A stretch of 64,000 nt of DNA from NCBI GenBank assembly GCA_040384805.1, contig JAZKIP010000009.1:1490-65489 (forward strand), in the 5' to 3' direction. Below, piece by piece: positions 21,097 through 62,957 of the stretch. The position numbers and the translations under genes are program-made. The notes under the pieces are model-generated. The model did not search any database and was not told where the DNA came from. It was given only the letters and a program-made list of their open reading frames with translations. Positions within the stretch are counted from its first letter, which is position 1. Each line of letters opens with the position of its first letter. This stretch comes from Patescibacteria group bacterium. GTDB taxonomy: Bacteria > Patescibacteriota > Minisyncoccia > Phycocordibacterales > UBA9973.

Positions 21097-21187
21097 GGAC
21101 GGACAAGGCTCTAGCGAGCTTATTTATATTGTATGACCCGCCTCCGCAAAACTACGGATGGGCAGGTGCGATATAGAAGAATTTATT

Positions 21188-24163: not shown

Positions 24164-24342
24164 TAATGAAGCGAAGCGGAATATATTTTTCTAAATCCGC
24201 CATACAAATTTATTGATTATAGTTAAGAGGTGTGATAGGGTGATATAAGTTTTATAACATACAAGGAATATTTGAAGTAATAAATAAATTTGGGGCGGAT
24301 AACGATTTTTATAGTCGTTCCTCCTTAAAAATCAGTCATATG
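24163..24342 (+). repeat. 180-bp element, copy 2 (rplX-rplE spacer, ends with the rplE ATG)
   Basis: Identical to 23771..23950. Confidence 0.85.
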
Positions 24343-26202: not shown

Positions 26203-26544
26203 ATGAACAAGAAACTGGAAAAAAGAATACGTTTAAAGAAAAAGATCCGCACCAAAGTAAACGGAACTCTCGGTATTCCGCGTCTCTCGGTATTTCGTTC
26301 AAACAGCTATGTCTATGCGCAAGTCATCGATGATACGACAGGAACAACTCTCGTGTCTGCGTCGGATATGAAGGCGAAAGACGGTTCAAAAACAGACCGA
26401 TCAAAGACTGTGGGAATGGATGTTGCTAAAGCGTCACTTGCAAAAGGAATCAAGAAAGTTGTTTTTGACCGTAATGGATTTAAGTATACCGGTCGGGTGA
26501 AAGCATTGGCGGATGCAGCCCGTGAAGGAGGTCTAGAGTTTTAA
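26203..26544 (+). CDS. rplR: 50S ribosomal protein L18
   Basis: L18 core ([17 protein letters not shown]...). Confidence 0.9.
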
Positions 26545-26565
26545 CCTGCCTGCCGGCAGGCAGGT
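26544..26565 (+). repeat. second exact copy of palindrome ACCTGCCTGCCGGCAGGCAGGT (rplR-rpsE spacer)
   Basis: Overlaps the last base of the rplR stop codon. Confidence 0.7.
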
Positions 26566-40133: not shown

Positions 40134-40916
40134 ATGGATCAGAAAGTGATAAACGTCTATAAAAAATCAGGTCAAACCCCTCTTGAGTGCATTCAAAAAC
40201 TCAAAAACGCCCATCTGGAACTCAGGCATGTGCCGCTTTCATACGCGGGGAGACTTGATCCTCTTGCCGAGGGTGTTCTCCTTATTCTTGTAGGAGATGA
40301 GTGTCTGAAAAAGGATGACTATCTGGCTTTGGACAAGGAATATGAGATGACTATCCTCTTCGGCTTCTCCACGGATACATATGATGTGATGGGACTAGTT
40401 GACGAGTCGAAAGAGTCGCAAGATCTGATAGAGGATATCTCGGATAAAGTCTCACATATTCTCCCGCAATTTGTGGGCCGCATCAGTCAGAAATATCCGG
40501 CATACTCATCACGAACAGTGGATAGTAAACCCCTTTTCCAATGGGCCCGCGAGGGGAAGCTTGATGAAATCGTCATACCGTCGCATGATGTCTTTATAAA
40601 AAGTATCAATATCGTCTCCTCGGGCTCCGTGTCGTCAGAGGAATTTCGCAAGAAAATACACGAAATGATCACCGCTGTCCATGGCGATTTCCGACAGGAC
40701 CAGATTCTTGGTATATGGAATAAAATCCTACGACCGCTTCCGGAAAAGGAATTTCCCGTTCTGACTCTTCGTATTGTTTCCGGAAGCGGGGTTTATGTCC
40801 GGGCACTTGCTCATGATATCGGACAGGCTCTCGGCATTCCCGCTCTTGCCCTTGGAATTGTACGTACGAGAGTAGGGGATTACCGGAATCCGGAATATCA
40901 ACAAGAGATGATATAA
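40134..40916 (+). CDS. truB: tRNA pseudouridine(55) synthase TruB-like
   Basis: YAGRLDPLAEGVLLIL catalytic Asp motif. Confidence 0.8.
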   Translation: MDQKVINVYKKSGQTPLECIQKLKNAHLELRHVPLSYAGRLDPLAEGVLLILVGDECLKKDDYLALDKEYEMTILFGFSTDTYDVMGLVDESKESQDLIEDISDKVSHILPQFVGRISQKYPAYSSRTVDSKPLFQWAREGKLDEIVIPSHDVFIKSINIVSSGSVSSEEFRKKIHEMITAVHGDFRQDQILGIWNKILRPLPEKEFPVLTLRIVSGSGVYVRALAHDIGQALGIPALALGIVRTRVGDYRNPEYQQEMI

Positions 40917-42547: not shown

Positions 42548-45517
42548 ATGATTTCACGGATATATGTGACTCCGACGGTATCTGATTCCCGAGCGGAGAT
42601 TCTGGCCACATCCTTCAATAATCTCGACATTAAAGGAAAAGTCACTCATATATCCGTCATCGATTGCTATACGATCGACGCTCCGCTTTCGCCAACTGAC
42701 CTTTCCGCTTCTGCCGCTCTTTTTGCGAATCCTGTCGCCGAAAATGCGACCGTCGGCGGATTTCCGAAGATCCCGCCATTTTCATATCTCGTCGAGATCG
42801 GGTATCTTCCGGGTGTCACTGACAATGTGGGTCACACGGCCATGGAGGAGATCGCTGACAAGCTCGGACGACCCTTTAAAGACACGGAAGCTGTGTATGT
42901 ATCACGGCTTTTTTGTATCTCAGGAGAGCTTTCCGAATCCGATGCAAAAATAATTTCCTTATCGCTTCATAATCCTCTGATCGAGCGGGCGTATGTGGCA
43001 AAAGCCGATCTTATTAAGAAACAAAACGGCCTGCCTCTTGTTGTTCCTCAAGTTATTCTTCCCACGAAAACTCCCGTTATAAAAGTCTCGCTTGATCTGT
43101 CTGACGAAGAACTTATAAAGATCGGCAAAGAAGGAATTTCAGGCCCCGACGGCATACGGCGCGGACCGCTTGCTCTTGATCTTGAATCTATGAAAGTCAT
43201 TCAGGCATTCTTTCGGAAACTCAAGCGTGATCCGACGGATATCGAGCTTGAATCTCTTGCCCAGACGTGGAGTGAGCATTGCAAGCACACGATATTCGCA
43301 AATTCGATCGATGATATTAAAGACGGGCTTTACAAGACATACATCAAGGCGGCGACGAATATTATACGAAAAAACAAAGGCAAAGATGATTTCTGCGTTT
43401 CCGTTTTCTCCGATAACGCAGGCGGCATTGTGTTGGACAAGGATTTTATGGTGACGCACAAGGTTGAGACTCATAACAGCCCGTCGGCGCTTGATCCTTT
43501 CGGCGGAGCGATCACAGGCATTGTCGGAGTTAATCGCGATACGATCGGATTTGGTCTCGGAGCAAAGCCTATCGCCAATACGTACGGATTCTGTTTTGGG
43601 TATCCGGGCGATGTGCGGCCGCTCTATCGCGACAAGAATCTCACGCAGAAAATGCTCCCTCCACGCCGCATCATCGATGGTGTCATAAAGGGAGTCAATG
43701 TCGGGGGAAACTGCTCGGGCATTCCGACAGTGTCGGGATTTGTTCGCTACGATGACCGCTTCCGCGGGAAACCTTTGGTATTCGTCGGTACGGTCGGATT
43801 GATCCCGCGAAAAATAAACGGAAAACTTTCGCATGAAAAATCCGCTCGCATAGGCGACTTGATTGTCGTCGTCGGGGGACGGGTCGGAGCCGACGGGATT
43901 CACGGAGCGACATTCTCCTCTGTTGCCATGGATTCATCGAGCCCTGCGACTGCTGTTCAGATCGGCGATCCGATCACTCAGAAAAAATTAAGCGACGCGA
44001 TTATCAAGGAAGCTCGTAACAGGGAACTCTATACGAGCATCACCGACAATGGCGCAGGAGGCCTTTCATGCTCGGTTGCCGAGATGGCCAAGGAGTCCGG
44101 CGGAGCAGTCGTCGATATTGAAAGCATTCCGACGAAATATCCCGGCCTTTCGCCCTGGGAGATCTGGATCTCCGAATCGCAGGAGCGAATGACCCTTTCG
44201 GTGCCGAAAAAGAAATGGAATGAATTCAAGAATTTGATGGAATCGCGCGGTGTGCTTGCCGTTGTAATCGGAGAGTTTACCGATTCCGGGAAGTGTATTG
44301 TCCGCCACAATGGGAAAATGATCATGGATATGCCGATGGAATTCCTTCATAACGGCTTGCCGGTTCGTCATCTCATATCAGAAAAAAGTAAGAGCGTACA
44401 TAAAGATCCGAAAATTCCCAGGGGAGATTCTCGGACGAAAGAATTGCTCGCGCTTTTAAGAGAAGGGAATGTCGGAGGATTTTCATTCATTTCGGAGCAA
44501 TATGATCATGAGGTGCAGGCTACATCGGTAATCAAACCGCTTTCCGGAAAAGGTCGCATCAATACCGATGCCCAAGTCATCCGCCCTGTTCTTGATTCTA
44601 CGAAAGGAGTGATACTTTCTGAAGGCGTATATCCTTCGTACTCCGATATCGACACATATCACATGGCTGCATGCGCGATCGACACGGCTATCAGGAATGC
44701 TGTCGCCGGAGGCGGAAGCCTAAAACATTTGGCAATTCTCGATAACTTCTGCTGGTGCTCGTCATACGACAAGAAACGCTTGGCGGAACTCGTCGCAGCC
44801 GTTCGCGCCTGCTATGACTACGCCGTCGGGTACGGAACCCCCTTTATTTCAGGCAAAGACAGTATGTTCAATGATTTCCGCGGATACGATGAAAAGGGAA
44901 ATCTGATCGCGATTTCAATCCCGCCGACGCTTTTAATATCGGCGATCGGAGTGATGAAGGATATATCAAAGGCGGTCAGTCCTGAATTTAAGATGGCAGG
45001 CGATATCATTTATGTCTTGGGTGAAACTCATGATGAGCTTGGTGCAAGCGAGTATTACAAGCTCCTTGCTAAGGGTACCCTTGAGGATATCGGAAATAGT
45101 ATGCCTCGGGTTGATCTCCAAAAGAATATTAAAATATATCAGGCGCTTGAAAAGGCGATCGATAAGGAATTAATCGCATCATCACTCTCCCTTACGTCCG
45201 GAGGCCTTTCTGTTGGATTAGCGAAGGCCTCTCTTGGCGGCATGCTCGGATGTACGGTGAATGTCAAAAATATTCCCGGCACGGCATCATCGATTGACGC
45301 GAAGCTTTTCTCCGAAAGTCAGGGGCGAATCATCGTTACTGTAGCGAAGAAAAACATACGCGCTTTTGAGAAACTGATGAGGAATATCCCGCATGCGAAG
45401 ATCGGCACTGTTTTAAGGAACAAGAGTTTCACCATAACCGATGAAAAGAAAGCGATTGATACGATGGTCGATATTCTTGCAAAAAATTATCATAACTTCT
45501 CGCGGCAATTTAAATAA
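42548..45517 (+). CDS. purL: phosphoribosylformylglycinamidine synthase PurL with a roughly 225-aa PurS-like N-terminal extension
   Basis: WSEHCKHTIF, GVNRDTIGFG and GGRVGADGIHGATFSS are PurL signatures. The extra N-terminal region resembles the PurS-like domain of large PurL. Confidence 0.85.
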   Translation: MISRIYVTPTVSDSRAEILATSFNNLDIKGKVTHISVIDCYTIDAPLSPTDLSASAALFANPVAENATVGGFPKIPPFSYLVEIGYLPGVTDNVGHTAMEEIADKLGRPFKDTEAVYVSRLFCISGELSESDAKIISLSLHNPLIERAYVAKADLIKKQNGLPLVVPQVILPTKTPVIKVSLDLSDEELIKIGKEGISGPDGIRRGPLALDLESMKVIQAFFRKLKRDPTDIELESLAQTWSEHCKHTIFANSIDDIKDGLYKTYIKAATNIIRKNKGKDDFCVSVFSDNAGGIVLDKDFMVTHKVETHNSPSALDPFGGAITGIVGVNRDTIGFGLGAKPIANTYGFCFGYPGDVRPLYRDKNLTQKMLPPRRIIDGVIKGVNVGGNCSGIPTVSGFVRYDDRFRGKPLVFVGTVGLIPRKINGKLSHEKSARIGDLIVVVGGRVGADGIHGATFSSVAMDSSSPATAVQIGDPITQKKLSDAIIKEARNRELYTSITDNGAGGLSCSVAEMAKESGGAVVDIESIPTKYPGLSPWEIWISESQERMTLSVPKKKWNEFKNLMESRGVLAVVIGEFTDSGKCIVRHNGKMIMDMPMEFLHNGLPVRHLISEKSKSVHKDPKIPRGDSRTKELLALLREGNVGGFSFISEQYDHEVQATSVIKPLSGKGRINTDAQVIRPVLDSTKGVILSEGVYPSYSDIDTYHMAACAIDTAIRNAVAGGGSLKHLAILDNFCWCSSYDKKRLAELVAAVRACYDYAVGYGTPFISGKDSMFNDFRGYDEKGNLIAISIPPTLLISAIGVMKDISKAVSPEFKMAGDIIYVLGETHDELGASEYYKLLAKGTLEDIGNSMPRVDLQKNIKIYQALEKAIDKELIASSLSLTSGGLSVGLAKASLGGMLGCTVNVKNIPGTASSIDAKLFSESQGRIIVTVAKKNIRAFEKLMRNIPHAKIGTVLRNKSFTITDEKKAIDTMVDILAKNYHNFSRQFK

Positions 45518-45518
45518 T

Positions 45519-46391
45519 ATGACAAACGAGAAATTTTTCCCTACAGGAAATGAGCGCAAAAAAGTAGTAGAAGAGAATCAAAAGCAAACTGTCTCTTTTC
45601 AGGAAAAAGGCAAAAGCATGATACAAGATTCCCACTATTATACGGATGTCGATTCTCCTCTTGAAGGTTCAATGGTAGATACGGGCAATAGTTTCAGCTT
45701 TTCATTCCATGAGATAATTCCGCAGGGTTACATAAATATGCGCGACTATATTGAAAAAAATCTTGCAGAGAAAAAAGGCCACGCTGTGGGAATTGAGTTC
45801 GGAGGTCTTGGGTACAATCTTTTTGCCGGATTCGACAGGGGATTTTTTAAAAAGTCGCTTGGCGTAACTCTCGTTGACCATAGGATGGATAGCTGGAAAC
45901 AACAAGACGAAAAAATAGCAGAAGAAAAGAAATTAGATCATACCGTCGTCGAAGGGAATATTCTGTCGCCGGATTTATATAAGAACTTGGAGAAAAAGCT
46001 CGATAAGAAAAAAGCGGATCTCGTCATTGAGAGAATGTTCAGAGGTCTTGAATTCATGCCGCAGGAGCCATATGAAATAGGCAAGGTGTTGCAGAAATGG
46101 TATTCGATGCTTAATGAGAACGGAATGATGTTTGTCCAGGTGCCGGTTGTTTTCAATAATCTTCTTGAAAAATGGGGTTTGATGATTCAAAAAGGATATG
46201 GTCATGTTATAGAATTAAGATACAAGAAAGGAAAGTATGACATGGGCAGAGTGGATGATCCGTCGGTCTTCATCTTGAAAAAATTAAAAGGAGCTCCCGA
46301 GAAGCTGCCTTTCCTTGATCCGAGAACTGTTCAGGAAACGGAAAAAAATACTGATATAAATTATTATGAAAAAAGAAACACTGAAAATTAA
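45519..46391 (+). CDS. hypothetical protein, possibly a Rossmann-fold methyltransferase-like protein
   Basis: HAVGIEFGGLGYNL (motif I-like), VTLVDHRMD and ADLVIERM. Inserted between purL and purQ; 26-nt overlap with purQ. Confidence 0.4.
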   Translation: MTNEKFFPTGNERKKVVEENQKQTVSFQEKGKSMIQDSHYYTDVDSPLEGSMVDTGNSFSFSFHEIIPQGYINMRDYIEKNLAEKKGHAVGIEFGGLGYNLFAGFDRGFFKKSLGVTLVDHRMDSWKQQDEKIAEEKKLDHTVVEGNILSPDLYKNLEKKLDKKKADLVIERMFRGLEFMPQEPYEIGKVLQKWYSMLNENGMMFVQVPVVFNNLLEKWGLMIQKGYGHVIELRYKKGKYDMGRVDDPSVFILKKLKGAPEKLPFLDPRTVQETEKNTDINYYEKRNTEN

Positions 46392-47163
46392 GAAACCGTG
46401 TGTCATGATCCTTTCGGGATACGGCATCAACTGCGAAGAGGAAACAAAATTCGCTTTCGAATCTGTAGGCGGCGCGGCCGACATTATCCACATCAACGAT
46501 CTTATTGATGATCCGGCATTATTTTCGAAATACCACATCCTTGCATTTCCGGGAGGGTTCTCGTATGGGGATGATACAGGATCGGGAAAGGCCTTTGCCA
46601 ATAAAATGAAGAATCATCTCGGGAAAGAACTCAAGGAGTTCGTCAGTCGCGACACGCTTGTTATCGGCATCTGTAATGGATTCCAGATTATTACGAATCT
46701 CGGCCTTCTGCCGGGAGCACTGGTACACAATAAAGGGGGCCTTTATATCGACCGTTGGGTTGATCTTGAAACAAAAGAAAATAAAAGCCCATGGCTTTCC
46801 GGTATAGAAAAGATTTCCCTCCCGATCGCCCATGGCGAAGGACGCTATGTTGTTGGTACTGATGAATATAAGGCGATGAAAAAAAGGGGAGACATAGCCT
46901 TTTCTTATACGAAAGGAGAAATATGCGATTATCAGAATCTCGAGGCCAATCCGAACGGCGCCATGCATGACATCGCGGGCATCCTCGGCTATAATGGAAG
47001 AGTCTTAGGGCTCATGCCTCATCCGGAAAGGGCACTTTTCTTCCATCATCGCCCCGATTGGCAGTTACGCAACGAAGTTCTTAAGAGGAAAGGGAAGAAA
47101 ATGGAAAAAGAAGGAGCAGGAATTGTCTTATTCAAAAACGCAGTTAAATACTTTAAAAAATAA
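46366..47163 (+). CDS. purQ: phosphoribosylformylglycinamidine synthase I (glutamine amidotransferase)
   Basis: GICNGFQ nucleophile Cys and HPE triad context. Confidence 0.9.
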   Translation: MKKETLKIKKPCVMILSGYGINCEEETKFAFESVGGAADIIHINDLIDDPALFSKYHILAFPGGFSYGDDTGSGKAFANKMKNHLGKELKEFVSRDTLVIGICNGFQIITNLGLLPGALVHNKGGLYIDRWVDLETKENKSPWLSGIEKISLPIAHGEGRYVVGTDEYKAMKKRGDIAFSYTKGEICDYQNLEANPNGAMHDIAGILGYNGRVLGLMPHPERALFFHHRPDWQLRNEVLKRKGKKMEKEGAGIVLFKNAVKYFKK

Positions 47164-47174
47164 ATCAAGAATAC

Positions 47175-48572
47175 ATGGAGCATCTTAAAGAAAAGTGCGG
47201 TATTGTAGGACTGTACGGCAGAGATTTGCCATTGGCGAAGCTTGCCTTTTTCGGTCTCTTTGCCCTTCAGCACAGAGGACAGGAAGCATCGGGAATTACG
47301 ACGTCAGATGGCGTCTCTTTTTATAATCATAAGGGCGCAGGCCTCGTGTCAGCAGTTTACAGCGAAGAGGATATTGCGCGCCTAGCGGGCCATATCGGCA
47401 TCGGACATAACCGCTACTCAACATCAGGCGGCGGAGCGCTCTCTCATGCTCAGCCGGTCGTAACGGGAGATTTTTCATTTGCTCTTGCTCATAATGGCAA
47501 TCTGCCGAGTACGAAGGCCCTTGAGGAATTCCTTTCATCACATGGCGTTCTTGTTGCTGACAGGACCGATTCTGAACTTATCGCCGATGCCGTGTCATTT
47601 TACCTTTCTCAAAGCCTATCCCTTGAAGAAGCGATAGAAAAAGTCTTCCCGCTTTTAACGGGAGCATTCTCTCTTGTCATGATGACGCGCGAAAAACTCG
47701 TCGCAGTGCGGGATTCATACGGGATGAGGCCGCTTTGTCTGGGAACCATCGGCGATGGATATATGATCGCGTCGGAGACATGCGCGCTTAAAACTATCGG
47801 GGCGACTTTTCTACGAGAAGTTAATCCGGGCGAAATGATGGTGATCGACGATTCGGGTCTTAAAAGCGTAACGCTTGCGAATGCGACGCCGAAACATGAC
47901 ATATTTGAATACGTGTATTTCGCTCGGCCTGATAGCGTTCTTAACGGAAAGCTCGTTTACGAAGTCAGAAAGAATTTCGGCAAAAAATTGGCCGAAGAAT
48001 GCCTCCTTGATGTCGACTGCGTGGTGCCCGTGCCCGATACTGCAACGCCTGTTGCCGTCGGATATACCGAAAAGTCGGGAATCCCGCTTGAGCTTGCTCT
48101 TGTGAAGAACCGTTATGTCCATCGCACCTTTATCGAGCCTGACCAGAAATCCCGCCGCAACAGTGTCGCATTAAAGCTTGTGACATTGCCGGAAGTTCTT
48201 GCCGGCAAGAAGATTGCGGTGATCGACGATTCTATCGTCCGAGGGAACACGAGCAAGAAGCTCGTCGAGGCTCTTTTTGCCGCAGGTGCGGCCGAAGTGC
48301 ACTTCCTCGTCTCATCGCCCCCGGTGAAGTTCCCCGATTTTTACGGGATCGATACTCCAATGCAAAGCGAGCTTATCGCATCGCACAAGACAGTTGAGGA
48401 GATCAGGGAATTTCTCGGAGCAACATCGCTTCACTTCTTGTCTCTTGAAGGACTGATAGAGTCGATCGGATTGCCGGAAGAAGAGCTCTCGACGTCATTT
48501 TTCACCGGAGAGTACCCGATCGATATTTTGGAAAGAAAAGATGAAGTTAGCTACGATGTATCGCAGGAATAG
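47175..48572 (+). CDS. purF: amidophosphoribosyltransferase (with propeptide before the catalytic Cys)
   Basis: KCGIVG N-terminal nucleophile and PRTase domain VIDDSIVRGNTS. Confidence 0.93.
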   Translation: MEHLKEKCGIVGLYGRDLPLAKLAFFGLFALQHRGQEASGITTSDGVSFYNHKGAGLVSAVYSEEDIARLAGHIGIGHNRYSTSGGGALSHAQPVVTGDFSFALAHNGNLPSTKALEEFLSSHGVLVADRTDSELIADAVSFYLSQSLSLEEAIEKVFPLLTGAFSLVMMTREKLVAVRDSYGMRPLCLGTIGDGYMIASETCALKTIGATFLREVNPGEMMVIDDSGLKSVTLANATPKHDIFEYVYFARPDSVLNGKLVYEVRKNFGKKLAEECLLDVDCVVPVPDTATPVAVGYTEKSGIPLELALVKNRYVHRTFIEPDQKSRRNSVALKLVTLPEVLAGKKIAVIDDSIVRGNTSKKLVEALFAAGAAEVHFLVSSPPVKFPDFYGIDTPMQSELIASHKTVEEIREFLGATSLHFLSLEGLIESIGLPEEELSTSFFTGEYPIDILERKDEVSYDVSQE

Positions 48573-48598
48573 AAATCGTAGGGTATTGGAGCAAGCAT

Positions 48599-48686
48599 AG
48601 TCTTCGAGAAATAACTTGCGCAAGGGCGACGGTCCGAGCAGAGAAAAAATTCAGCAGAATTTTATTCGTGTATTTCGAGAAGAGCT
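48599..48686 (-). repeat. pur-cluster intergenic element, copy A (inverted orientation)
   Basis: Its reverse complement aligns with 52179..52270 and 54941..55030 (AGCTCTTCTCGAAAT...CTGCTCGGACCGTCG.CCT.GCAAG...ATTTCTCGAAGACT). Confidence 0.7.
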
Positions 48687-48712
48687 ATGCTTGTGGAAAG
48701 AATAAATAATAT

Positions 48713-49432
48713 ATGAAAATTGCATTATTAATTTCAGGGGGAGGAACGACGATGGAAGCGATCATCAAGGCGTGCAAGAACGGATCGCTTCTTGGGGTTG
48801 TCCCGGGGCTTATTATTTCAAGCACTCCTTCTGCGGGCGCAATAGAGAAAGCCAAAGCTCTTGGCATATCGCCCGATGACATTTTAATATTGAATCCCAA
48901 ATCATTTTCGTCTCAGGAGGAATTTGGGGAAGTTCTCATTGCTGAATGCAGGAAGAGAAATATCGATTTCATCGGCCAATACGGCTGGCTTATCAAAACT
49001 CCGGACATCGTCTGTGAAGCTTTTAAGGGGAGAATCGTTAATCAGCACCCTGGGCCTTTAGATAATGGCCGCCCTGATTTTGGAGGGCCCGGCATGTACG
49101 GCATGCGAGTACATCAGGCGCGACTTGAATTTGTTCGCAAAACCGGACATGATTTCTGGACCGAAGCGACCACTCATAGAGTGACATCTCATTTTGACAA
49201 AGGCAGAATTGTCAAAAGAAAGCAGATACCCATATTTCAGAATGACACAGCAGAAACTCTTCAAGCGCGCCTCTTGCCTGTCGAACACGAAGTCCAGATT
49301 GAAGCGCTCCGGGATTTTGCCAATAATACCGTTTCTGAGTTTACGCGGGAACACCCACTCGTTCTTGCGGACGAATTAGAGACTCTCGCAGAGTGCAAAG
49401 AAAATGCCCGTAAAGCGTACCCGAATGGGTGA
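48713..49432 (+). CDS. purN: phosphoribosylglycinamide formyltransferase
   Basis: IALLISGGGT and NQHPGPL motifs; insertion relative to canonical PurN. Confidence 0.85.
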   Translation: MKIALLISGGGTTMEAIIKACKNGSLLGVVPGLIISSTPSAGAIEKAKALGISPDDILILNPKSFSSQEEFGEVLIAECRKRNIDFIGQYGWLIKTPDIVCEAFKGRIVNQHPGPLDNGRPDFGGPGMYGMRVHQARLEFVRKTGHDFWTEATTHRVTSHFDKGRIVKRKQIPIFQNDTAETLQARLLPVEHEVQIEALRDFANNTVSEFTREHPLVLADELETLAECKENARKAYPNG

Positions 49433-49444
49433 TATACTAAAAAT

Positions 49445-50737
49445 ATGACAAAACAGAAAATCTTGATTATCGGTTCCGGCGGCCGCGAGCATGCCATCGG
49501 ATGGAAGATAAAGCAATCCGCGCGCTGCGGAGAGCTTTTCTTTGCGCCCGGTAATGCGGGAACGCTTGCACTCGGGACGAATATGGATATCAAGGCGACT
49601 GATATACTGGGGTTGATCGAATTTGTGAAATCGCAGAAGATCGATGTTACTCTCGCTATTCCTGATGATCCGCTTGCTCACGGGATCGTCGATGCGTTCC
49701 GTGCGGTCGGCTTGCGTATCTTCGGTCCTATGAAAGAAGCCGCACAGCTTGAATCATCGAAAGCATATGCGAAGTATTTTATGGAAACCCATAACTTGCC
49801 GACTGCGAAATTCAAGACATGCACCAGTTTTCCTGAAGCTGAGGAATATGTCAGAGAACAAACGTTTCCATTGGTTATAAAGGCAAGCGGACTTGCTTTG
49901 GGGAAAGGGGTTCTCATCTGCCATGATATGACCGAAGCTCTTGAAGCTCTCGACAGCATCTTGGTGAAAAAGATATTCGGAGATGCTGGAAGCGTCGTTG
50001 TCATAGAAGAATTTATGACAGGCCCCGAGGTCTCTATACACGCGTTTTCGGATGGAATTACATCGCAGCTTTTCCCCGCGTCGCAGGATCATAAAAGGAT
50101 CGGTGACGGGGATACAGGGCCGAATACCGGAGGAATGGGAACGATCGCCCCGCTCCCTTTCGTTAGGCAAGAGTGGATGGAAAAAATCAAGAAAGATATT
50201 GTCGAGCCGACAATCGAGGGAATGAAAACCATTAATGCTCCTTTTGAAGGAGTTCTGTATCCGGGGCTGATGCTTACTGCCGAGGGCCCCAAAATTCTCG
50301 AATACAATGCTCGGTTCGGCGATCCTGAAACGCAAACATATATGCGCCTGCTTGAGACTGATCTCATCGATATTGTTGATGCCTGTATCGACAAAAAATT
50401 ACATGAAATAGAGATTGTATGGAAAAATAGATCAGCGTGCACGGTTATTTGTGCATCAGAAGGCTATCCGGGTGTTTATGAAAAAGGAAAGGTAATTGCA
50501 GGGATACAAGACGCGGAAAGCCACGATGACATTGTCGTTTTCCATGCGGGAACTATCATGCACGAGGGAGAGCTTGTGACCAACGGCGGCCGGGTGCTCG
50601 GAGTAAGCGCGATCGGCGTAACTTTACATCAAGCGCTTGATAAAGCTTATAAAGCTATAGAGATGATTTCATTCGACGGGATGCAATACAGAAAGGATAT
50701 TGGCCAAAAGGCCCTTCAACAAAAATTATTAATATAA
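49445..50737 (+). CDS. purD: phosphoribosylamine--glycine ligase
   Basis: ILIIGSGGREHAIGWK and ATP-grasp core. Confidence 0.93.
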   Translation: MTKQKILIIGSGGREHAIGWKIKQSARCGELFFAPGNAGTLALGTNMDIKATDILGLIEFVKSQKIDVTLAIPDDPLAHGIVDAFRAVGLRIFGPMKEAAQLESSKAYAKYFMETHNLPTAKFKTCTSFPEAEEYVREQTFPLVIKASGLALGKGVLICHDMTEALEALDSILVKKIFGDAGSVVVIEEFMTGPEVSIHAFSDGITSQLFPASQDHKRIGDGDTGPNTGGMGTIAPLPFVRQEWMEKIKKDIVEPTIEGMKTINAPFEGVLYPGLMLTAEGPKILEYNARFGDPETQTYMRLLETDLIDIVDACIDKKLHEIEIVWKNRSACTVICASEGYPGVYEKGKVIAGIQDAESHDDIVVFHAGTIMHEGELVTNGGRVLGVSAIGVTLHQALDKAYKAIEMISFDGMQYRKDIGQKALQQKLLI

Positions 50738-50765
50738 TTGACATGCTATCTCTGTTTGTTATGCT
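50738..50765 (+). promoter_or_regulatory. promoter TTGACA-N16-TATGCT directly after the purD stop
   Basis: Consensus -35 and an acceptable -10 with a TG two bases upstream. Confidence 0.4.
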
Positions 50766-50792
50766 GTAAATATCACCAAAAGTTTCCAACTT

Positions 50793-50957
50793 ATGGACGA
50801 AAAAAAGGATGATGTGCCTGATCCTCAGGTAGGAAAAGGTACAAAAAATGTTATTTTAACCCCTAAAACTGGTGGTTCAAAGGAAACACCTATCGCTGAT
50901 AGACAAGATGATGCTGATGATAACGGGACAGGATGGGACGAACGCTGGGGAAAATAA
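50793..50957 (+). CDS. candidate 54-aa acidic small protein
   Basis: ATG..TAA ORF, below the ORF-track cutoff, bracketed by a promoter-like element and a hairpin+T terminator (50965..50995). Coding status unproven. Confidence 0.25.
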   Translation: MDEKKDDVPDPQVGKGTKNVILTPKTGGSKETPIADRQDDADDNGTGWDERWGK

Positions 50958-51033
50958 TATTTTAAATATAGAAAGTCCTCCTTGAGGGGACTTTTTTGTT
51001 GTTTCATCACTCCTCCTCTGCTACAGTTAGGAT

Positions 51034-52158
51034 ATGAAAACGATTGGAATCGCCGGCGGAGGACAGTTGGGGCGGATGCTTGCGGAAGCGGCGCAGCATC
51101 TCGGTTTTTCAGTCGCTATTCTTGATCCGACGGAAAAGTGTCCAGCAGCGGAATTTGCCGATACTCACATCGTTGGGAGTTTCAAAGACAAGGACAAGAT
51201 TCACGAGCTTGCCCGGATTTCTGACTATATAACGTTTGAGATCGAGTCCGCCAATGCCGAGGCTCTCGACGAGCTTGTCGCTTCGGGGAAGATCGTTCAT
51301 CCGTCGCCTGCGACTCTCCGTACTATAAAAGATAAGTTCGGACAGAAAGCATTTTTGCGTGATAATGATATTCCTGTAGCTGATTTTGCGCTTATTGAAA
51401 CGGAAGAAGACTGCAGAAAGCAGGGCGATATATTCGGCTATCCTTTTCTTCTGAAGGCTCGGTTCGATGCATACGACGGACGGGGGAACTGTGTCATTCG
51501 TAGCGAATCAGATATTGCAGATGCTTTTTCTGCGCTATCGAAGAGCCCACTTTATGCAGAGCGATTCGTACCATTCATAAAAGAGCTGTCGGTTGTTTCG
51601 GCGCGTGATACAAACGGCAGTATCGTTTCGTATCCTGTCGTTGAGACGATCCATAAAAACAATATCTGCCATATTGTTCGCTCTCCTGCGCCCGTTGATA
51701 GTGAAATTCAAAAAAACGCCGAGGCACTTGCTAGAAAAGTACTCGATGTTTTGGGCGGGGTCGGAGTGTTCGCCTGCGAAATGTTCCTGACAGCCGGGGG
51801 AGAAATTCTTATAAACGAAATCGCCCCGCGGGTTCACAATTCAGGCCATCATACGATAGAGGCGTTTACTGCCTCTCAATTCGAACAGCACATACGAGCT
51901 ATCACGGGCATGCCTCTTGTCATACCTGAATCTCTTTCACAGGCGGCCGTGATGATCAATATATTGGGCGAGCGGGATGCGCAAGCAGAGCTTTTTGGGA
52001 ACGATCAGGCTCTTGCCCTCGGTGGTGTCACGGTGCATATCTATGGTAAACTGCAGACACGAAAGGAGCGCAAGATGGGCCATATAACAGTACTTTCTGA
52101 CAGTATTGAAGAGGCCGAAAACAAAGCAATTGAAGCGCGCAAATTGATATCTATATAA
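51034..52158 (+). CDS. purK: N5-carboxyaminoimidazole ribonucleotide synthase
   Basis: ATP-grasp with IGIAGGGQLGRML N-terminus. Confidence 0.9.
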   Translation: MKTIGIAGGGQLGRMLAEAAQHLGFSVAILDPTEKCPAAEFADTHIVGSFKDKDKIHELARISDYITFEIESANAEALDELVASGKIVHPSPATLRTIKDKFGQKAFLRDNDIPVADFALIETEEDCRKQGDIFGYPFLLKARFDAYDGRGNCVIRSESDIADAFSALSKSPLYAERFVPFIKELSVVSARDTNGSIVSYPVVETIHKNNICHIVRSPAPVDSEIQKNAEALARKVLDVLGGVGVFACEMFLTAGGEILINEIAPRVHNSGHHTIEAFTASQFEQHIRAITGMPLVIPESLSQAAVMINILGERDAQAELFGNDQALALGGVTVHIYGKLQTRKERKMGHITVLSDSIEEAENKAIEARKLISI

Positions 52159-52178
52159 TTAAGTAGTCGTCAGAAAAT

Positions 52179-52270
52179 AGCTCTTTGCGGAATGCACGCA
52201 TAAAATTCTGCTCTATTTTTGCTCAGACTCGGACCGTCGTCCTCCGCAAGTCATTCCGCCAAGACTATTT
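52179..52270 (+). repeat. pur-cluster intergenic element, copy B
   Basis: About 75 percent identical to copy C and to the reverse complement of copy A. Confidence 0.7.
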
Positions 52271-52288
52271 TCTTCTGACCTTTAACGA

Positions 52289-52804
52289 ATGAAAAAACAA
52301 ACTCACATCGCAATTATCATGGGTTCGGATTCGGACCTTCCTGTTATGCAGGAAGCGGCACAGATGCTCGAGGATTTCGGCGTTGGATATGAAATAACCA
52401 TTGTATCCGCTCACCGCACTCCTGATGTTTTGGTGTCATATGCGACAAAAGCTCTCGGTCGCGGTATAAAAGTTATCATCGCAGGCGCAGGCGGGGCAGC
52501 GCATCTTCCCGGTATGACGGCATCGATGACGGTGCTTCCTGTGATCGGTGTGCCGATCAAGACGAAGACAATGGATGGCCTCGATTCTCTTTTATCAATC
52601 GTCCAGATGCCGCCCGGCGTTCCGGTTGCAACAGTCGCCGTCAACGGTGCGAAAAATGCCGCCCTCCTTGCTCTCCAGATGCTTGGTATCTCTGATAAAA
52701 AATTACAGAAAAAGATATCCGATTATAAAAAGAAAATGAATACTGACGTGAAAGGAAAAGCCAAGACATTATCTGCAAAGGGCTATAAGAAATATTTTGC
52801 ATAA
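52289..52804 (+). CDS. purE: N5-CAIR mutase
   Basis: [14 protein letters not shown] and [10 protein letters not shown] signatures. Confidence 0.93.
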
Positions 52805-52805
52805 T

Positions 52806-53846
52806 ATGAGTGATCTTTACGCACAATCAGGAGTCAACATCGACGCAGGCAACGAATCGGTCAGCCGGATCAAGGCTCATGTTACCACGACGCACACAAG
52901 CGCGGTACTAACAGGGATCGGAAGCTTCGGCGCGCTCTATGATATCGGCGATGTTCTTAAGTCATATTCGCATCCGGTTCTTGTTCAGTCGATCGATGGC
53001 GTTGGCACAAAGCTCTCGGTTGCGCGCATGATGGGAAAATACGATACAGTGGGAGAAGATATTGTGAACCACTGCTGCGATGATCTTCTTGCTATGGGTG
53101 CGCGATCGCTTACGTTTCTTGACTATGTCGCCAACGACAAGCTTGATCCCGACGTTATGGAAGCCATGGTCAAAGGAATGTCTAAAGCATGCAAAGAAAA
53201 CGGAGTATCGCTCATCGGCGGGGAAACCGCCGAAATGCCGGGCGTCTATATGCCCGGCGAACACGATATTGCCGGGTGCATTACGGGCGTTGTGGAAAAA
53301 GACAGGATCATCACAGGAGAGAAGATAAAGGAGGGAGATATCATTCTCGGCTTCCCCTCATCAGGCCTTCATACGAACGGATTTTCTCTTGCCCGCAAAA
53401 TACTTTTCAGTATCGCGGGTCACACGACAGAGACTGTCGTCGATGAGCTTGGCGAAAGCGTAGGCGAAGCCCTTCTGAAAGTACATGTTAATTATTCGCG
53501 GCCTGTTCTTGAAATGCTTGATCAGGGTATCGACATCCGCGGGATCGCTCATATAACTGGTGGCGGATTCATTGAGAATATTCCACGCGTACTTCGCAAT
53601 GGTCTTGATGCTGAAATAAAAAAAGGATCATGGCCAATGCTTCCTATATTTCCGTATATGCAAAAAATGGGGAATGTCGACGAAAGCGAAATGTATCGCG
53701 TCTTTAATATGGGGGTAGGACTTGTCCTGATTGTACCTGAAAGCGAGAAAGGGAAAATTGAAGCAATTCTCAATAACTATTCGGAATTCAAAATATATGA
53801 AATCGGAAAAATTAGCCCGGGTGAAGGAAAAGTTGTCTTGAAATAA
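52806..53846 (+). CDS. purM: phosphoribosylformylglycinamidine cyclo-ligase (AIR synthetase)
   Basis: DGVGTKL and GGETAEMPG signatures. ATG 52806 directly after the purE stop. Confidence 0.93.
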   Translation: MSDLYAQSGVNIDAGNESVSRIKAHVTTTHTSAVLTGIGSFGALYDIGDVLKSYSHPVLVQSIDGVGTKLSVARMMGKYDTVGEDIVNHCCDDLLAMGARSLTFLDYVANDKLDPDVMEAMVKGMSKACKENGVSLIGGETAEMPGVYMPGEHDIAGCITGVVEKDRIITGEKIKEGDIILGFPSSGLHTNGFSLARKILFSIAGHTTETVVDELGESVGEALLKVHVNYSRPVLEMLDQGIDIRGIAHITGGGFIENIPRVLRNGLDAEIKKGSWPMLPIFPYMQKMGNVDESEMYRVFNMGVGLVLIVPESEKGKIEAILNNYSEFKIYEIGKISPGEGKVVLK

Positions 53847-53847
53847 T

Positions 53848-53974
53848 TGAATCCCGTTAGAGATGTGCCTCAATATATAATATGGTGTAAGATAAAATAA
53901 GATATAGGTTATATTATTAATAATACATAAATAAGAAATGGAAGATTTAAAAGGCTTCCTATCTCTAACGGGAT
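53848..53974 (+). other. 17-bp inverted repeat TGAATCCCGTTAGAGAT ... ATCTCTAACGGGATGAAT enclosing about 96 nt of AT-rich sequence; the right arm contains the purC start codon
   Basis: Arms at 53848..53864 and 53961..53974 seen directly. Confidence 0.6.
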
Positions 53975-54929
53975 GAATATCGAACTTATAAAAGACCATA
54001 TTAATGATGTCCTGATTGAAACGAATTTTGAAGACTTGGGAGAGAAAAAAGTTGGCAAGGTCAGAGATATTTATATTAATGATAAAAATATTATTCTTAT
54101 TGCAACCGACCGCCATTCGTCATTCGATCGCATTATCGCCCACGTGCCATTTAAGGGGGAAGTCCTCAACCAGATAAGCGCTTTCTGGTTCGAGAATACG
54201 AAGGATATCATTCCCAATCATGTCATCTCGATTCCCGACCCCAATGTTCTTGTTGCCCGAAAATGCACGCCTCTTCCGATCGAGGCGGTCGTCCGAGGAT
54301 ATATAACAGGAGTGACGGGCACATCGCTCTGGACGCATTACGAGAAAGGCAAACGCGACTTCGGAAATTTTATCCTTCCTGAAGGATTGGAGAAAAATCA
54401 GAAACTTTCTGAACCGGTTTTCACGCCGACCACCAAATCCGACGAGCATGACCGGCCAATCACACCCCGAGAGATCGTCGCCGAAGGGTTGTTAACGAAA
54501 GAAATGTGCGATGAAATCGAACGTGTTGCTAAAGCATTATTTACGCGTGGGCAGGAAATCGCTCTTTCGAGGGGACTCATACTTGTCGATACGAAGTATG
54601 AATTCGGTATCGATGACGAAGGGAAACTTGTTCTTATCGATGAGATCCATACGCCTGATTCCTCGCGCTACTGGAAAGCAGCTACATATGATGAGCGATT
54701 CAATGCTGAAGAGGAACCCGAATACTTCGACAAGGAATTCCTGCGCCTCTGGTTCAAGGACAACTGCGATCCGTATAATGATCCTGTGTTGCCCGAAGCG
54801 CCTCCTGAACTTGTGGCAGAACTGTCCCGCCGCTATATCGAGATCTATGAAACAATCACTGGCAAGGCATTCGAACATGATTTTTCTCAGCCTATTATTG
54901 AAAGGATACAAAATAATTTAAGGACATAA
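53973..54929 (+). CDS. purC: SAICAR synthetase (long form)
   Basis: GKVRDIY and LVLIDEIHTPDSSRYW signatures. Confidence 0.9.
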   Translation: MNIELIKDHINDVLIETNFEDLGEKKVGKVRDIYINDKNIILIATDRHSSFDRIIAHVPFKGEVLNQISAFWFENTKDIIPNHVISIPDPNVLVARKCTPLPIEAVVRGYITGVTGTSLWTHYEKGKRDFGNFILPEGLEKNQKLSEPVFTPTTKSDEHDRPITPREIVAEGLLTKEMCDEIERVAKALFTRGQEIALSRGLILVDTKYEFGIDDEGKLVLIDEIHTPDSSRYWKAATYDERFNAEEEPEYFDKEFLRLWFKDNCDPYNDPVLPEAPPELVAELSRRYIEIYETITGKAFEHDFSQPIIERIQNNLRT

Positions 54930-54940
54930 CTTCATAAAAC

Positions 54941-55030
54941 AGCTCTTCTCGAAATGTACACATAATTTCCTGCTGGAAATTTGCTCTGCTCGGCCCGTCG
55001 GTCTCCGCAAGACATTTCTCAAAGACTGTT
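54941..55030 (+). repeat. pur-cluster intergenic element, copy C
   Basis: Aligns with copies A (reverse complement) and B. Confidence 0.7.
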
Positions 55031-55054
55031 TTATTGTGTTATAGTCTAGTTTAG

Positions 55055-56422
55055 ATGATTAACGCTATAACTCCATTAGACGGACGCTATTACGAGAAAA
55101 CCAAGGCTCTTTCTCTGTATTTCTCGGAGTGGGCTCTCATGAAGTACCGTGTCATGGTTGAGTGTGAATTCTTCATATTCCTCTCCGAGTCCAAAATGAC
55201 AGATCTCCGAGCGTTGACCGCAGGCGAAGCTAAAAAAGTGCGTGAGCTTTATGAAAAGTTCGACGATGTATCATACAAAAAAATAAAGACATTCGAATCA
55301 ACGACGAATCATGATGTTAAAGCCGTGGAATATTTCCTGAAGGAATCTCTGAAAACGACGAGTCTGAAAAATGCGATCGAATGGATCCATTTCGGTCTCA
55401 CGTCCGAAGATACGAACAATTGCGCCCATGCCCTGATGCTCGGTCTCGGTATTAAGAATGTCATTTCTCCGGCTCTGAGAGATATTGGAAAATTCCTTCT
55501 AGATTCTGCAAAAGTTTACGCCGCGCTTCCGATGCTTGCCCGCACTCACGGTCAGAGCGCATCGCCGACAACGCTCGGGAAGGAATTCGCAGTCTTCGGC
55601 GCACGGCTTTCCCGCCAGATGAAGCAATTGAATAGTTATAAAATCCTGATGAAGCTTAACGGCGCAACAGGCAACTACAATGCTTTCGTTGCCGCATACC
55701 CGAAAGGAAAATGGGATATCTTTACGCGAAAATTCATTGCCCATCTCTCCAAAATTGTCGGGATACACTATGAGGCCAATCTGATTACGACCCAGATCGA
55801 GTCTCACGACACCTATGCTGAGCTTTTCGACACGATGCGTCGGATCAATACGATTCTCGTCGATTTTAATCAGGATATGTGGCGGTATATAAGCGACGGA
55901 TATATCACACAGAAGCCCAAGAAAGGAGAAGTCGGATCATCGACCATGCCGCACAAGATCAATCCAATCGACTTTGAGAACAGCGAAGGAAACCTCGGCC
56001 TTGCTAACGCGCTCTTTACATTCTTCTCCCAGAAATTGCCGATCTCGCGTCTTCAGCGCGATCTCTCGGACTCGACCGTTGAGCGGTCTTTCGGAACGGC
56101 ATTTGGATACTCATATGTAGCATACTTGTCTCTTTTGAAGGGCTTAGGCAAAATAAGCGTAAATGTTGATAAAATAAAGGATGATTTGCTATCGCACCCC
56201 GAGGTGGTCGCAGAGGCGATCCAGACGGTTCTCCGCCGTGAGGGGTATCCGATCCCGTACGAAGCGCTCAAGGAACTGACCCGCGGAAAAGAAATAACAA
56301 TGGACGGTTTCTTAAGATTCATCGACAACTTAAAGATATCTTCGAAGCTCAAGACGGAGCTTAAAAGATTTACTGCCGAGAATTACACGGGCATGGCGAA
56401 GAAAATTGCAATTATTAACTAA
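55055..56422 (+). CDS. purB: adenylosuccinate lyase
   Basis: Fumarate-lyase signature GSSTMPHKINPIDFEN. Confidence 0.93.
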   Translation: MINAITPLDGRYYEKTKALSLYFSEWALMKYRVMVECEFFIFLSESKMTDLRALTAGEAKKVRELYEKFDDVSYKKIKTFESTTNHDVKAVEYFLKESLKTTSLKNAIEWIHFGLTSEDTNNCAHALMLGLGIKNVISPALRDIGKFLLDSAKVYAALPMLARTHGQSASPTTLGKEFAVFGARLSRQMKQLNSYKILMKLNGATGNYNAFVAAYPKGKWDIFTRKFIAHLSKIVGIHYEANLITTQIESHDTYAELFDTMRRINTILVDFNQDMWRYISDGYITQKPKKGEVGSSTMPHKINPIDFENSEGNLGLANALFTFFSQKLPISRLQRDLSDSTVERSFGTAFGYSYVAYLSLLKGLGKISVNVDKIKDDLLSHPEVVAEAIQTVLRREGYPIPYEALKELTRGKEITMDGFLRFIDNLKISSKLKTELKRFTAENYTGMAKKIAIIN

Positions 56423-57420: not shown

Positions 57421-57807
57421 GGGGGATGACGGGCTTCGACAGGAGATCGTCCTCATGTATGTGCGTGTCGAGTGCGAAGGTATCTCGTAAAACTACTTTC
57501 AAAAGACTACGTGCAAACAAAGTCGCTTCAGTAAAGTCACCATACACTGGTAACTTTGCTCTCGCATTCGCCTAATTTAGGTCATGTGAGTGTCTCTTAT
57601 ATAGACATCCGATATATACGAGAGGCATAACTTATCGGGTTACGGATCATGCCGTGTTCGCGCATGATCCCGACAATACAGAACTCAGCATGCGTTTGTT
57701 TTGCTTGTTCTCTAGAGCGTATGCTTAAACCGATCGAACAAGTTACACACGTAGACTCATATATGAACATCTTCTGCATGGCGGTTCAACTCCGCCCATC
57801 TCCACAA
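57421..57807 (+). ncRNA. ssrA: tmRNA (ssrA); predicted tag ANKVASVKSPYTGNFALAFA (57513..57572, stop TAA 57573..57575)
   Basis: 5' GGGGGATGACGGGCTTCGACAGG. 3' tRNA-like arm GCGGTTCAACTCCGCC-CATCTCC pairs with the 5' GGGGATG. The reading frame ends ...LAFA-stop like canonical tags. Located directly after smpB. Confidence 0.8.
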
Positions 57808-57810
57808 TAA

Positions 57811-57848
57811 AACTTCCCGCGAAAGCGGGATTTTTTATTGTGGAGATG
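57811..57848 (+). terminator. hairpin TCCCGC-GAAA-GCGGGA + T6, nested in a larger near-palindrome that includes the tmRNA 3' end and its inverted copy ATTGTGGAGATG
   Basis: Seen directly. Confidence 0.65.
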
Positions 57849-58216
57849 AATAAGCAAACTGCTTTGCTTATGTGGCGGAGATGAAGACCTTTTCCCTATG
57901 AGCGTACTCGCGAATGGAAAAGGCTAAAACCTTAATAGGTTTTAGAGTCGGAGGCTGATGAGCCGAGACGGGGTCGCGAACTTTTTCAACAGAAAAAGAT
58001 TTGTGACTACTGATCCTGTAAGGATCAACATGTGTAATCATGGTCCACCCATCTCCACAACCTTGACTTTCTTCTCATTTTATGCTATTGTCCTATCAAT
58101 GGTAGCACTTTGACACACTTTGATGAATTTTGCTGTGAGAACTATTTTCGCATCTGTTTTTAGATGTTCGATTAGTTTTCACAGTAAAAATTAAACTAAT
58201 CATCAAAAAATTAATT

Positions 58217-62689: not shown

Positions 62690-62763
62690 CCACCCTTAGC
62701 TCAGTTGGTTAGAGCACAGAGCTTATACCTCTGGGGTCCTTGGTTCGAATCCAAGAGGGTGGA
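62690..62763 (+). tRNA. tRNA-Ile (anticodon UAU), no encoded CCA
   Basis: Cloverleaf: acceptor CCACCCT/AGGGTGG, D-arm GCTC-AGTTGGTTA-GAGC, anticodon stem CAGAG/CTCTG with loop CTTATAC, T-arm CTTGG-TTCGAAT-CCAAG, discriminator A. Confidence 0.8.
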
Positions 62764-62804
62764 CACTTTAAAAAACAAGCTAAACCTTGTTTTTTAAAGT
62801 GTCC
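62761..62804 (+). terminator. 44-bp palindrome GGACACTTTAAAAAACAAG-CTAAAC-CTTGTTTTTTAAAGTGTCC overlapping the tRNA 3' end
   Basis: 19-bp perfect arms. Confidence 0.65.
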
Positions 62805-62814
62805 AAGCCGGAGG

Positions 62815-62837
62815 CCGACGGGCCGAGGCCGGGTCGG
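62815..62837 (+). repeat. GC-rich quasi-palindrome CCGACGGGCCGAGGCCGGGTCGG (CCGAC..GTCGG family) in AT-rich surroundings
   Basis: Seen directly; followed at 62914..62932 by a C8 T9 homopolymer pair. Confidence 0.5.
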
Positions 62838-62957
62838 GCAAATTTTTAGCAGAAAATTATGCCTGACGACACCAAAACAATATTAAAACTCCTTAATGTA
62901 AAGGAGAAAAAGCAGACCCCCCCCTTTTTTTTCTTTTAAAGTAAAAATCATGTGGTA

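Follow-up and report, generated by a model that had tools for sequence, protein, structure and literature searches.

Repetitive extragenic palindromic (REP) units are 20 to 40 nucleotides (nt) long, conserve their stem sequence together with a 5' GTAG, and are mobilized by RAYT transposases, and miniature inverted-repeat transposable elements (MITEs) have shared terminal inverted repeats and short target-site duplications. Here, we describe a family of structured intergenic elements that has five copies in a 64,000-nt stretch of a Patescibacteria metagenome-assembled genome (MAG) (contig JAZKIP010000009.1, positions 1,490 to 65,489), which is referred to below as the window. Three copies (type 1) lie at gene junctions of a purine biosynthesis (pur) cluster, and two (type 2) lie behind a tRNA gene and the tmRNA gene. 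In its genomic behavior, the element is a bacterial interspersed hairpin repeat that does not fit the definition of either REP units or MITEs, and the constraint on its interior follows one strand, as in a functional RNA. We give about an even chance to the view that it is a non-autonomous mobile, or recently mobile, element that spreads via a folded single-stranded intermediate, a mechanism that we infer from the sequences.

The family resembles the REP/BIME and REPIN repeats of Proteobacteria in having many extragenic copies at the 3' ends of genes, in either orientation, as hairpins of which one strand is the recognized form, and the action of REP/BIME as stabilizers of mRNA 3' ends, a side effect, is a further likeness. 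Unlike REP units, the element is 87 to 188 nt long across the family, its stem is specific to each locus while a branched apex of about 55 nt is conserved, no RAYT gene was seen among the neighboring genes or the scanned open reading frames (ORFs) of the window, and the family spans distant classes, whereas a REP belongs to one species. With MITEs and the Correia/NEMIS, ERIC/IRU, RUP and BOX elements, it shares a size of about 100 to 150 nt, a non-coding and intergenic nature, frequent cotranscription, occurrence in both orientations, and presence or absence between relatives. It differs from MITEs in that the outer 5 to 25 bp are different at each locus, type 1 lacks flanking direct repeats of at least 10 nt, and the interior covaries like a functional RNA.

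Type 2 recalls the integrative elements that target tRNA genes (T-loop sublocation, tyrosine integrases), as it comes after an intact tRNA gene whose 3' end, from the T-loop onward, is directly repeated on the far side of the element. Unlike those elements, the type-2 insert is only about 150 to 200 nt long, encodes nothing and has no integrase nearby, and it uses position 56 in at least 16 tRNA identities. As an analogy only, the family is like the eukaryotic tRNA-linked retroelements and retroposons of the short interspersed nuclear element (SINE) kind, which are small and non-autonomous, with an RNA strand selected in either orientation, an antisense bias and tRNA genes as safe sites. Unlike for these retroposons, no reverse transcriptase, poly-A or target-primed duplication signature has been demonstrated for the element, and to our knowledge, bacterial equivalents of SINEs are not established. 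The TIGR arrays of TIGR-Tas systems also occur in Patescibacteria and have conserved motifs between variable palindromic flanks (PMC12045711). TIGR units form tandem arrays beside tas genes and carry box C/D motifs and spacers (PMC12045711), whereas the element occurs as dispersed single copies without box C/D, and we rejected this identity.

RESULTS

Five copies in the window

A preliminary description of this DNA had reported a repeat of roughly 90 bp at the purF-purN, purK-purE and purC-purB junctions, with the first copy inverted relative to the other two, which were said to be about 75% identical to each other. All three copies are where they were reported, copy A is indeed the reverse complement of B and C, and pairwise identity among the three is 74 to 76% over about 102 nt, with a mean column identity of 80% in the three-way alignment. 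That description did not mention that the copies form long hairpins, in which the outermost ~9 bp vary from copy to copy and still pair, nor did it include the two diverged copies D and E, which were found with a covariance model (R1) and bring the number in the window to five. The copies and the parts of copy A are as follows.

48592..48693, folded (sense) strand +: copy A, type 1, at the junction of purF (stop 48572) and purN (start 48713)
48592-48614 and 48670-48693, strand +: the two arms of stem P1 in copy A
48617-48640, strand +: P3ext/tandem G.A/P3 arm of copy A, with a GACG loop at 48628-48631
48643-48667, strand +: P2ext/P2 arm of copy A, with an AGCA loop at 48653-48656
~52166-52279, sense strand -: copy B, type 1, at the junction of purK (stop 52158) and purE (start 52289)
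54927..55041, sense strand -: copy C, type 1, at the junction of purC and purB (start 55055)
57937..58018, strand +: copy E, type 2, 130 nt 3' of the tmRNA gene (57422-57807)
62791..62878, strand +: copy D, type 2, 27 nt 3' of the tRNA-Ile(TAT) gene (62690-62764)

The covariance model matched copy A at 48602-48683(+) with 83.1 bits (E = 1.6e-22), copy B at 52182-52263(-) with 72.1 bits and copy C at 54944-55024(-) with 85 bits (E = 4.4e-23). All three fold much more stably than shuffled sequence (z = -4.1 to -4.9; -4.3 for copy A), and a core pattern of 17 specified bases matched A, B and C only in the window, with 0 matches expected from 100 shuffles. Copy B has two P2 mismatches beside the loop and is partly degenerate, and the purC stop codon (54927-54929) falls within the outermost arm of copy C. 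Matches to the type-2 copies were weaker. Copy D (37.8 bits, E = 9.3e-9) has a 5' arm that overlaps the 3' half of a hairpin after tRNA-Ile, and type-2 copies beside tRNA-Ile genes on other contigs are laid out in the same way. Copy E (29.7 bits, E = 2.5e-6) lies beyond the terminator-like hairpin of the tmRNA gene (57815-57830); it has the same P3ext/G.A/P3 arm (GUC GGA GGCU-GAUG-AGCC GA GAC), a lengthened P2 arm and no long P1, and it fits the type-2 pattern, which is itself matched in at least 120 metagenome contigs. With genes assigned by NCBIfam, the order in this part of the window is purL, purQ, purF, A, purN, purD, a 54-amino-acid (aa) ORF, purK, B, purE, purM, purC, C, purB, and then smpB and the tmRNA gene.

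A branched core folded on one strand

The anatomy is described in copy A and in the orientation that we call sense. The conserved core of about 55 nt is a three-way junction with two arms, closed by the long stem P1. After C(C)U comes the P3 arm, which consists of P3ext (3 bp, UGC/GCA), a G(N)A/GA loop able to form tandem G.A pairs, P3 (4 bp, GGNC/GN'CC) and a GACG loop. After GA comes the P2 arm, with P2ext (2 bp), a small internal loop, P2 (7 bp) and an AGCA loop closed by C-G, and GU then joins this arm to the 3' arm of P1. The inner ~14 bp of P1 are common to A, B and C, and the inner P1 is generally shared within subfamilies; the outer ~9 bp differ among the three copies while still pairing (CAAGCAUAG/CUAUGCUUG, AGAAAAUAG/CUAUUUUCU and AUAAAACAG/CUGUUUUAU). 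A pairing of UUGC with GCAA across the junction was rejected, as it is the 3' side of the P2 arm with which the GC of GCAA covaries.

In 87 copies, aligned by fitting to the covariance model and therefore biased toward the structure, 91.2% of the cells were paired compared to 65.2% in shuffles, with 617 double-sided changes compared to 170, and an independent MAFFT alignment agreed. Shifting the partner columns lowered pairing to 34 to 49%. All five helices covary, with P2 99%, P3 98.5% and P3ext 96% paired; for P3ext, of which the automatic alignment scores few swaps as double changes, inspection by eye of diverged copies gave AGC/GCU, UCC/GGA, UUU/AAA, GCC/GGC and GUC/GAC.

The two strands are not equivalent. 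On the sense strand, the structural alignment contains 70 G.U against 26 A.C and 101 G.A against 21 U.C combinations, and a strand-neutral comparison of the DNA of one arm with that of the other gave 51 mismatches of the G.U type in sense and 11 on the other strand. Pair 46-70 is G-C in 34 sequences, G.U in 15 and A-U in 5, and tandem G.A pairs (CGAG/CGAG, GAGCGA/GAGCGA) recur in P1 at varying depth. Since this asymmetry does not depend on the strand of the flanking genes, the folded strand can be assigned as + for A, D and E and - for B and C, so that the pur mRNA has the sense form after purF only. The preliminary description had taken the inverted copy as an argument against a strand-specific RNA, which is not supported: across the family, the G.U and G.A pairs stay on one strand however the genes are oriented, and type 2 is always co-oriented with its upstream tRNA gene. 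It had also considered that covariation might support an RNA structure of a single orientation with copy A as a coincidence. The covariation is strong and one strand is folded. Copy A is a member of the same family as B and C.

Several type-2 cores have hairpins directly 5' of them with conserved loops of their own, GGGGUGGGACCC, GAAUACUUGGAG and GCGAAGC (loci L094, L142, L147, L149, L164, L181, L194 and L210, and also L098, L101, L128, L166, L182 and L206), which suggests further modular variants of the family.

Distribution and gene context

A pattern of 22 specified bases, scanned over one genome per species, matched 83 places, comprising 67 clear homologues and 16 chance matches in high-G+C coding DNA. 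The homologues, often several per genome, are mostly in genomes named Patescibacteria, and the remainder are in unclassified "bacterium" MAGs and one 3.4-kb contig labeled Bacteroidetes. Host groups include Saccharibacteria, Paceibacterota/Parcubacteria, Nomura-, Yonath-, Taylor-, Vogel- and Doudnabacteria, and Minisyncoccia. Model R1 found 14 further copies in 473 kb of flanking sequence, or about one per 34 kb, and there were no matches among 2.9 million viral contigs. The 109 proteins encoded beside copies match 145 Pfam families, the commonest of which, SpoU methylase, accounts for 4 of the 109.

With 67 copies beside unrelated housekeeping genes in other genomes, the dispersed REP/MITE-like behavior that the preliminary description had proposed is borne out, and the role specific to pur genes that it had also entertained is contradicted by the copies at non-pur loci. 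Its wider proposal of a MITE- or REP-like DNA repeat stands as far as dispersal goes and fails in other respects, as no terminal repeat is conserved and type 1 has no flanking direct repeat of 10 nt or more.

Crude ORF calls placed copies in 16 convergent and only 5 divergent gene pairs, and between co-directional genes, the sense strand was antisense to the genes in 25 cases and in the gene direction in 14. In the 35 cases in which the antisense form is in the mRNA, the hairpin base is always between -42 and +23 nt from a stop codon, and in about half of them this codon is inside the arm. Adjacent copies are arranged head-to-head (- then +) in all 4 pairs seen (L039 2022-2219, L006 6785-7037, L053 7019-7228 and L008 6326-6585). 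Three other loci (L114, L101 and L131) have two type-2 units each on the same strand, about 90 to 215 nt apart.

The preference for convergent pairs, the fixed position relative to stop codons in the cases of that one orientation and the head-to-head pairs are what would be expected of a host-selected, cis-acting RNA signal. A protein conserved in Patescibacteria, such as an RNase, a termination factor or a 3'-end factor, would bind or cleave its junction, and the signal would serve after tRNA and tmRNA genes and at cistron ends to process, terminate or stabilize transcripts, with antisense copies acting on opposite transcription. We consider this explanation, the principal alternative to a mobile element, rather unlikely. 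The excess of antisense over sense copies in co-directional pairs argues against it, as do the lack of -10 box enrichment upstream of the folded strand and the lack of a U-tract after the stem on either strand (among 68 copies, T-runs of at least 4 come after the stem in just 9 on one strand and 10 on the opposite strand). It also fits poorly with the position of copy E beyond a canonical tmRNA terminator and with the existence of degenerate copies, namely, copy B and those at L089, L024:286 and L034:697.

Copies are hairpins at gene ends, and some outer arms are terminator-like, for example, at L041 and L067, where A and T runs surround a G+C-rich stem. It is nevertheless very improbable that the family consists of ordinary bidirectional intrinsic terminators or of palindromes that are alike by chance. 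In addition to the scarcity of T-runs, a terminator scan called none of the five window copies, the 55-nt branched core is shared, with covariation, by distant genomes, and the chance expectation is 0.

A variant joined to the T-loop of tRNA genes

Counts for type 2 refer to the matches listed. A tRNA or tmRNA gene lies within 200 nt upstream on the same strand in 79 of the 116 copies that have enough upstream sequence, mostly at a distance of 25 to 90 nt, and in none of the 116 is the only nearby tRNA gene on the opposite strand. At least 16 tRNA identities, counting tmRNA, are represented. Of 68 distinct cases, 38 have a direct repeat of the tRNA 3' end behind the core; it is 10 to 38 nt long (median, 19.5 nt), starts at T-loop position 56 in 29 of the 38 and ends 0 to 3 nt past the tRNA gene and sometimes further. 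The upstream tRNA is intact, and the two copies of its 3' end are separated by about 150 to 200 nt of non-coding DNA without an ORF. The type-2 5' arm is complementary to the first 7 to 11 nt of the repeat, and in the clearest examples, it agrees better with the inverted copy than with the T-stem strand of the tRNA itself. Type 2 thus shows a very specific joint to a hairpin loop, and its constant orientation relative to the tRNA supports the strand assignment independently. The same co-orientation with the upstream tRNA or tmRNA gene would also be expected of the host RNA signal considered above. A scan of 60 type-1 loci found no consistent link to tRNA genes.

The window contains a gene for TruB, the tRNA pseudouridine-55 synthase (40134-40916), and the type-2 joint adjoins T-loop positions 55/56. 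This match is probably a coincidence, although enzymes that bind the T-arm are candidate partners.

Direct repeats of a tRNA 3' end that start in the T-loop are the footprint of tRNA-targeting integrases. They are among the reasons to consider a DNA-level repeat that acts as single-stranded DNA, that is, a REP/RAYT-like or attC-like hairpin for an HUH nuclease or a tyrosine recombinase, with the tRNA-linked form as a putative miniature integrative element that brings along a tRNA 3' end of its own. The orientation of the copies is independent of transcription, DNA hairpins also tolerate G.T and G.A pairs, and the folded strand is on the C-rich strand in 47 cases compared to 23 on the other (28 to 9 at strong skew), all of which would agree with such a repeat. 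We still think it quite unlikely and place it below the host RNA signal. Despite the C-rich strand bias, a replichore rule was rejected, as copies of opposite orientation are found close together, both in single 8-kb stretches and in the window. The apex is conserved and the stem variable, which is the reverse of the situation in REPs, REPINs and attC sites, and the use of many different tRNAs at the same structural position is unlike a sequence-specific integrase. No recombinase or HUH gene was found among the neighbors or the scanned window ORFs. If the element spreads through a folded single strand, we favor RNA over single-stranded DNA as the putative intermediate because the G.U/G.A signature is independent of the replication and transcription context and because the antisense bias is like that of retroposons.

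Gain and loss at pur clusters

Related pur clusters were collected through PurC homologues with 78 to 85% identity, and the ten that have an organism name are all from Paceibacterota, Parcubacteria, Nomurabacteria or the "Patescibacteria group." Three of the related clusters (L085, L086 and L088) have no model match at any of the three junctions, and in these, purF-purN and purC-purB are 1 to 20 nt apart or overlap. A Nomurabacteria scaffold (L087) has one copy after purB. L089/L090 has an orthologous copy at purC-purB only, in the same orientation as copy C and with the same inner P1, in which a 48-nt insert takes the place of P3. Together, the element-free clusters and the partial sharing indicate that the pur copies are lineage-specific insertions.

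Could the element, at the three junctions, regulate purine synthesis as an operator of the PurR type or as an undescribed riboswitch or leader RNA? Three of the five window copies are in the pur cluster, and two relatives have a copy beside purB. The clustering of three copies is only marginally unusual (p of about 0.05 in our rough estimate for 11 of ~60 junctions), and since A, B and C are of one subfamily, local spread is a likely explanation for it. Homologous copies flank unrelated housekeeping genes, three related pur clusters do without any, and one of the copies here is inverted. No riboswitch in Rfam matches, and no dyad is conserved among A, B and C. We regard purine-specific regulation as scarcely credible, less so even than ordinary terminators. 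The pur copies are therefore passengers that do not sense purines, although such very stable stem-loops between cistrons (in sense after purF and in antisense after purK and purC) may incidentally affect the processing or stability of the mRNA. That related clusters manage with gaps of 1 to 20 nt also argues against a host-selected RNA signal.

The empty sites bear on the outer arms as well. In the A/B/C subfamily, homology between genomes stops at AAUAGU-CUU...GAAGA-GCUAUU, and beyond this limit, each copy has 5 to 25 bp of locus-unique, near-perfectly complementary sequence. Such arms could result from insertion into the apex of pre-existing hairpins, from an inverted duplication created at insertion, or from later extension of the palindrome by template switching, all of which are possible. 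Because the empty sites have almost no intergenic gap, an origin from a pre-existing hairpin is disfavored, at least for the pur cluster.

The cluster itself (42548-56422) encodes a complete de novo purine pathway in a Patescibacteria MAG, as is likewise the case in many Paceibacterota relatives. Patescibacteria are usually described as being without nucleotide synthesis. The purD-purK gap contains a promoter-like TTGACA-16-TATGCT (50738-50765), the 54-aa ORF and a hairpin that the terminator scan rated as good (50970-50996), and the cluster is probably not a single transcription unit.

Comparison with known RNAs and sites

Apart from tRNA and tmRNA, the window had no Rfam 15 match at the gathering score, and no family match was believable at E values of up to 10 for copies A and C or up to 0.1 for 16 type-2 loci. 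Literature searches by keyword and by core sequence string returned no matching element, and within the limits of Rfam 15 and the searchable literature, the family is apparently undescribed.

The preliminary description had found no known riboswitch consensus in the repeat, including that of ZTP/pfl, and the absence of Rfam matches agrees with this. Purine riboswitches and leaders (purine, ZTP/pfl, PRPP, Fibro-purF and others) were rejected for lack of a covariance match, occurrence in both orientations and the 145 Pfam families among the neighbors. Its suggestion of a PurR-like operator was not upheld: no dyad is conserved, the palindrome CCTTGCGCAAGG is present in copy A and not in B or C, and the element is not tied to pur genes. 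A PUR box was likewise rejected, since CCTTGCGCAAGG, the only dyad, is confined to A, the sites lie between cistrons and the element is missing from related pur clusters.

Covariance models of self-cleaving ribozymes (hammerhead, twister, pistol, hatchet and HDV-like) gave no match. The hammerhead look-alike CUGAUGAG in copy E is the P3 hairpin and not a hammerhead core, and for the type-2 strings CUGAUGAG and GGGUCG...GUGAC, which resemble parts of hammerhead and ZTP RNAs, the helices do not match and no score was obtained with the models. Integron attC sites were rejected because conserved R and L boxes are expected at the base, whereas here the base is variable and the apex conserved, and there are no cassette arrays.

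Other features of the window

A perfect direct repeat of 180 nt (23771-23950 and 24163-24342), A+T-rich and non-coding, flanks a 71-aa L24-like ORF (23948-24163) in the ribosomal-protein operon and is either another intergenic repeat or an assembly artifact. An identical, G+C-rich perfect palindrome, AACCTGCCTGCCGGCAGGCAGGT, follows ribosomal-protein genes at 23106-23128 and 26543-26565 and is a second hairpin repeat unrelated to the element. An identical 32-nt box, TTTGACAATCTTTTTTAATTTGCTAGTATGGA, at 12710-12741 (upstream of tuf, 12865) and 21068-21099 resembles a shared promoter. In an ORF without an NCBIfam match (11367-12662), a repeat of 9-nt period (12316-12477) encodes a collagen-like G-E/Q-P tract. 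Finally, 36854-38224 and 31777-34509 encode, respectively, a beta-CASP ribonuclease (below the cutoff, with Cas14/aCPSF1 models) and a 910-aa protein with a weak match to TraD-like coupling ATPases.

DISCUSSION

The element behaves like a dispersed repeat and is constrained like a functional RNA. If it does spread via a folded single-stranded intermediate, a trans-acting factor would recognize the folded form, insertion would take place at hairpin-forming 3' ends of genes or tRNAs, and the flanking inverted duplication would arise with or after insertion.

Several points weigh against this reading. No transposase, reverse transcriptase, HUH or integrase gene was found among the neighbor proteins or the scanned window ORFs, the 25 commonest neighbor Pfam families include no transposase, reverse transcriptase or integrase, and no RAYT (Y1 HUH) gene was seen among the neighbor proteins in 8-kb flanks or the scanned ORFs of the 64-kb window. 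This lack of a partner enzyme is the main weakness of every mobile model. Type 1 has no flanking direct repeat at the lengths scanned, 10 nt or more. All of the empty sites are in relatives with about 85% protein identity, which makes the insertion boundaries coarse, and the gene contexts rest on ORF calls that are crude. Paralogues within a genome are old and diverged and have kept their pairing by compensatory change (L004, L016, L034 and L044; L012 and L035), which fits a host-selected function as well as it does several master lineages. Moreover, the near-invariance of the core across distant classes is not typical of selfish DNA and would presuppose a partner that is itself highly conserved. 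The last two observations also count in favor of the host RNA signal discussed above.

A more specific version of the mobile element can be envisaged, in which the three-way junction is the active part of a new bacterial mobile RNA. This would be a small non-autonomous retro-element or a ribozyme-like RNA that inserts at the apex or the 3' side of hairpins and joins T-loop position 56 of tRNAs, with its spread creating the locus-specific inverted duplications. We consider this version unlikely. If true, it would represent a SINE-like or group-II-independent system of RNA-mediated mobility that is specific to Patescibacteria.

At a practical level, the covariance model can now be used to annotate copies, and our findings call for caution in that repeats of this kind should not be taken for pathway-specific regulators. 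The element also accounts for unusually large intergenic gaps in the operons of Patescibacteria. These bacteria constitute a large part of bacterial diversity, and the non-coding portion of their very small, densely packed genomes is almost unexplored. In this setting, the element would represent either a mobile element with a new mechanism or a new RNA signal of general use in Patescibacteria.

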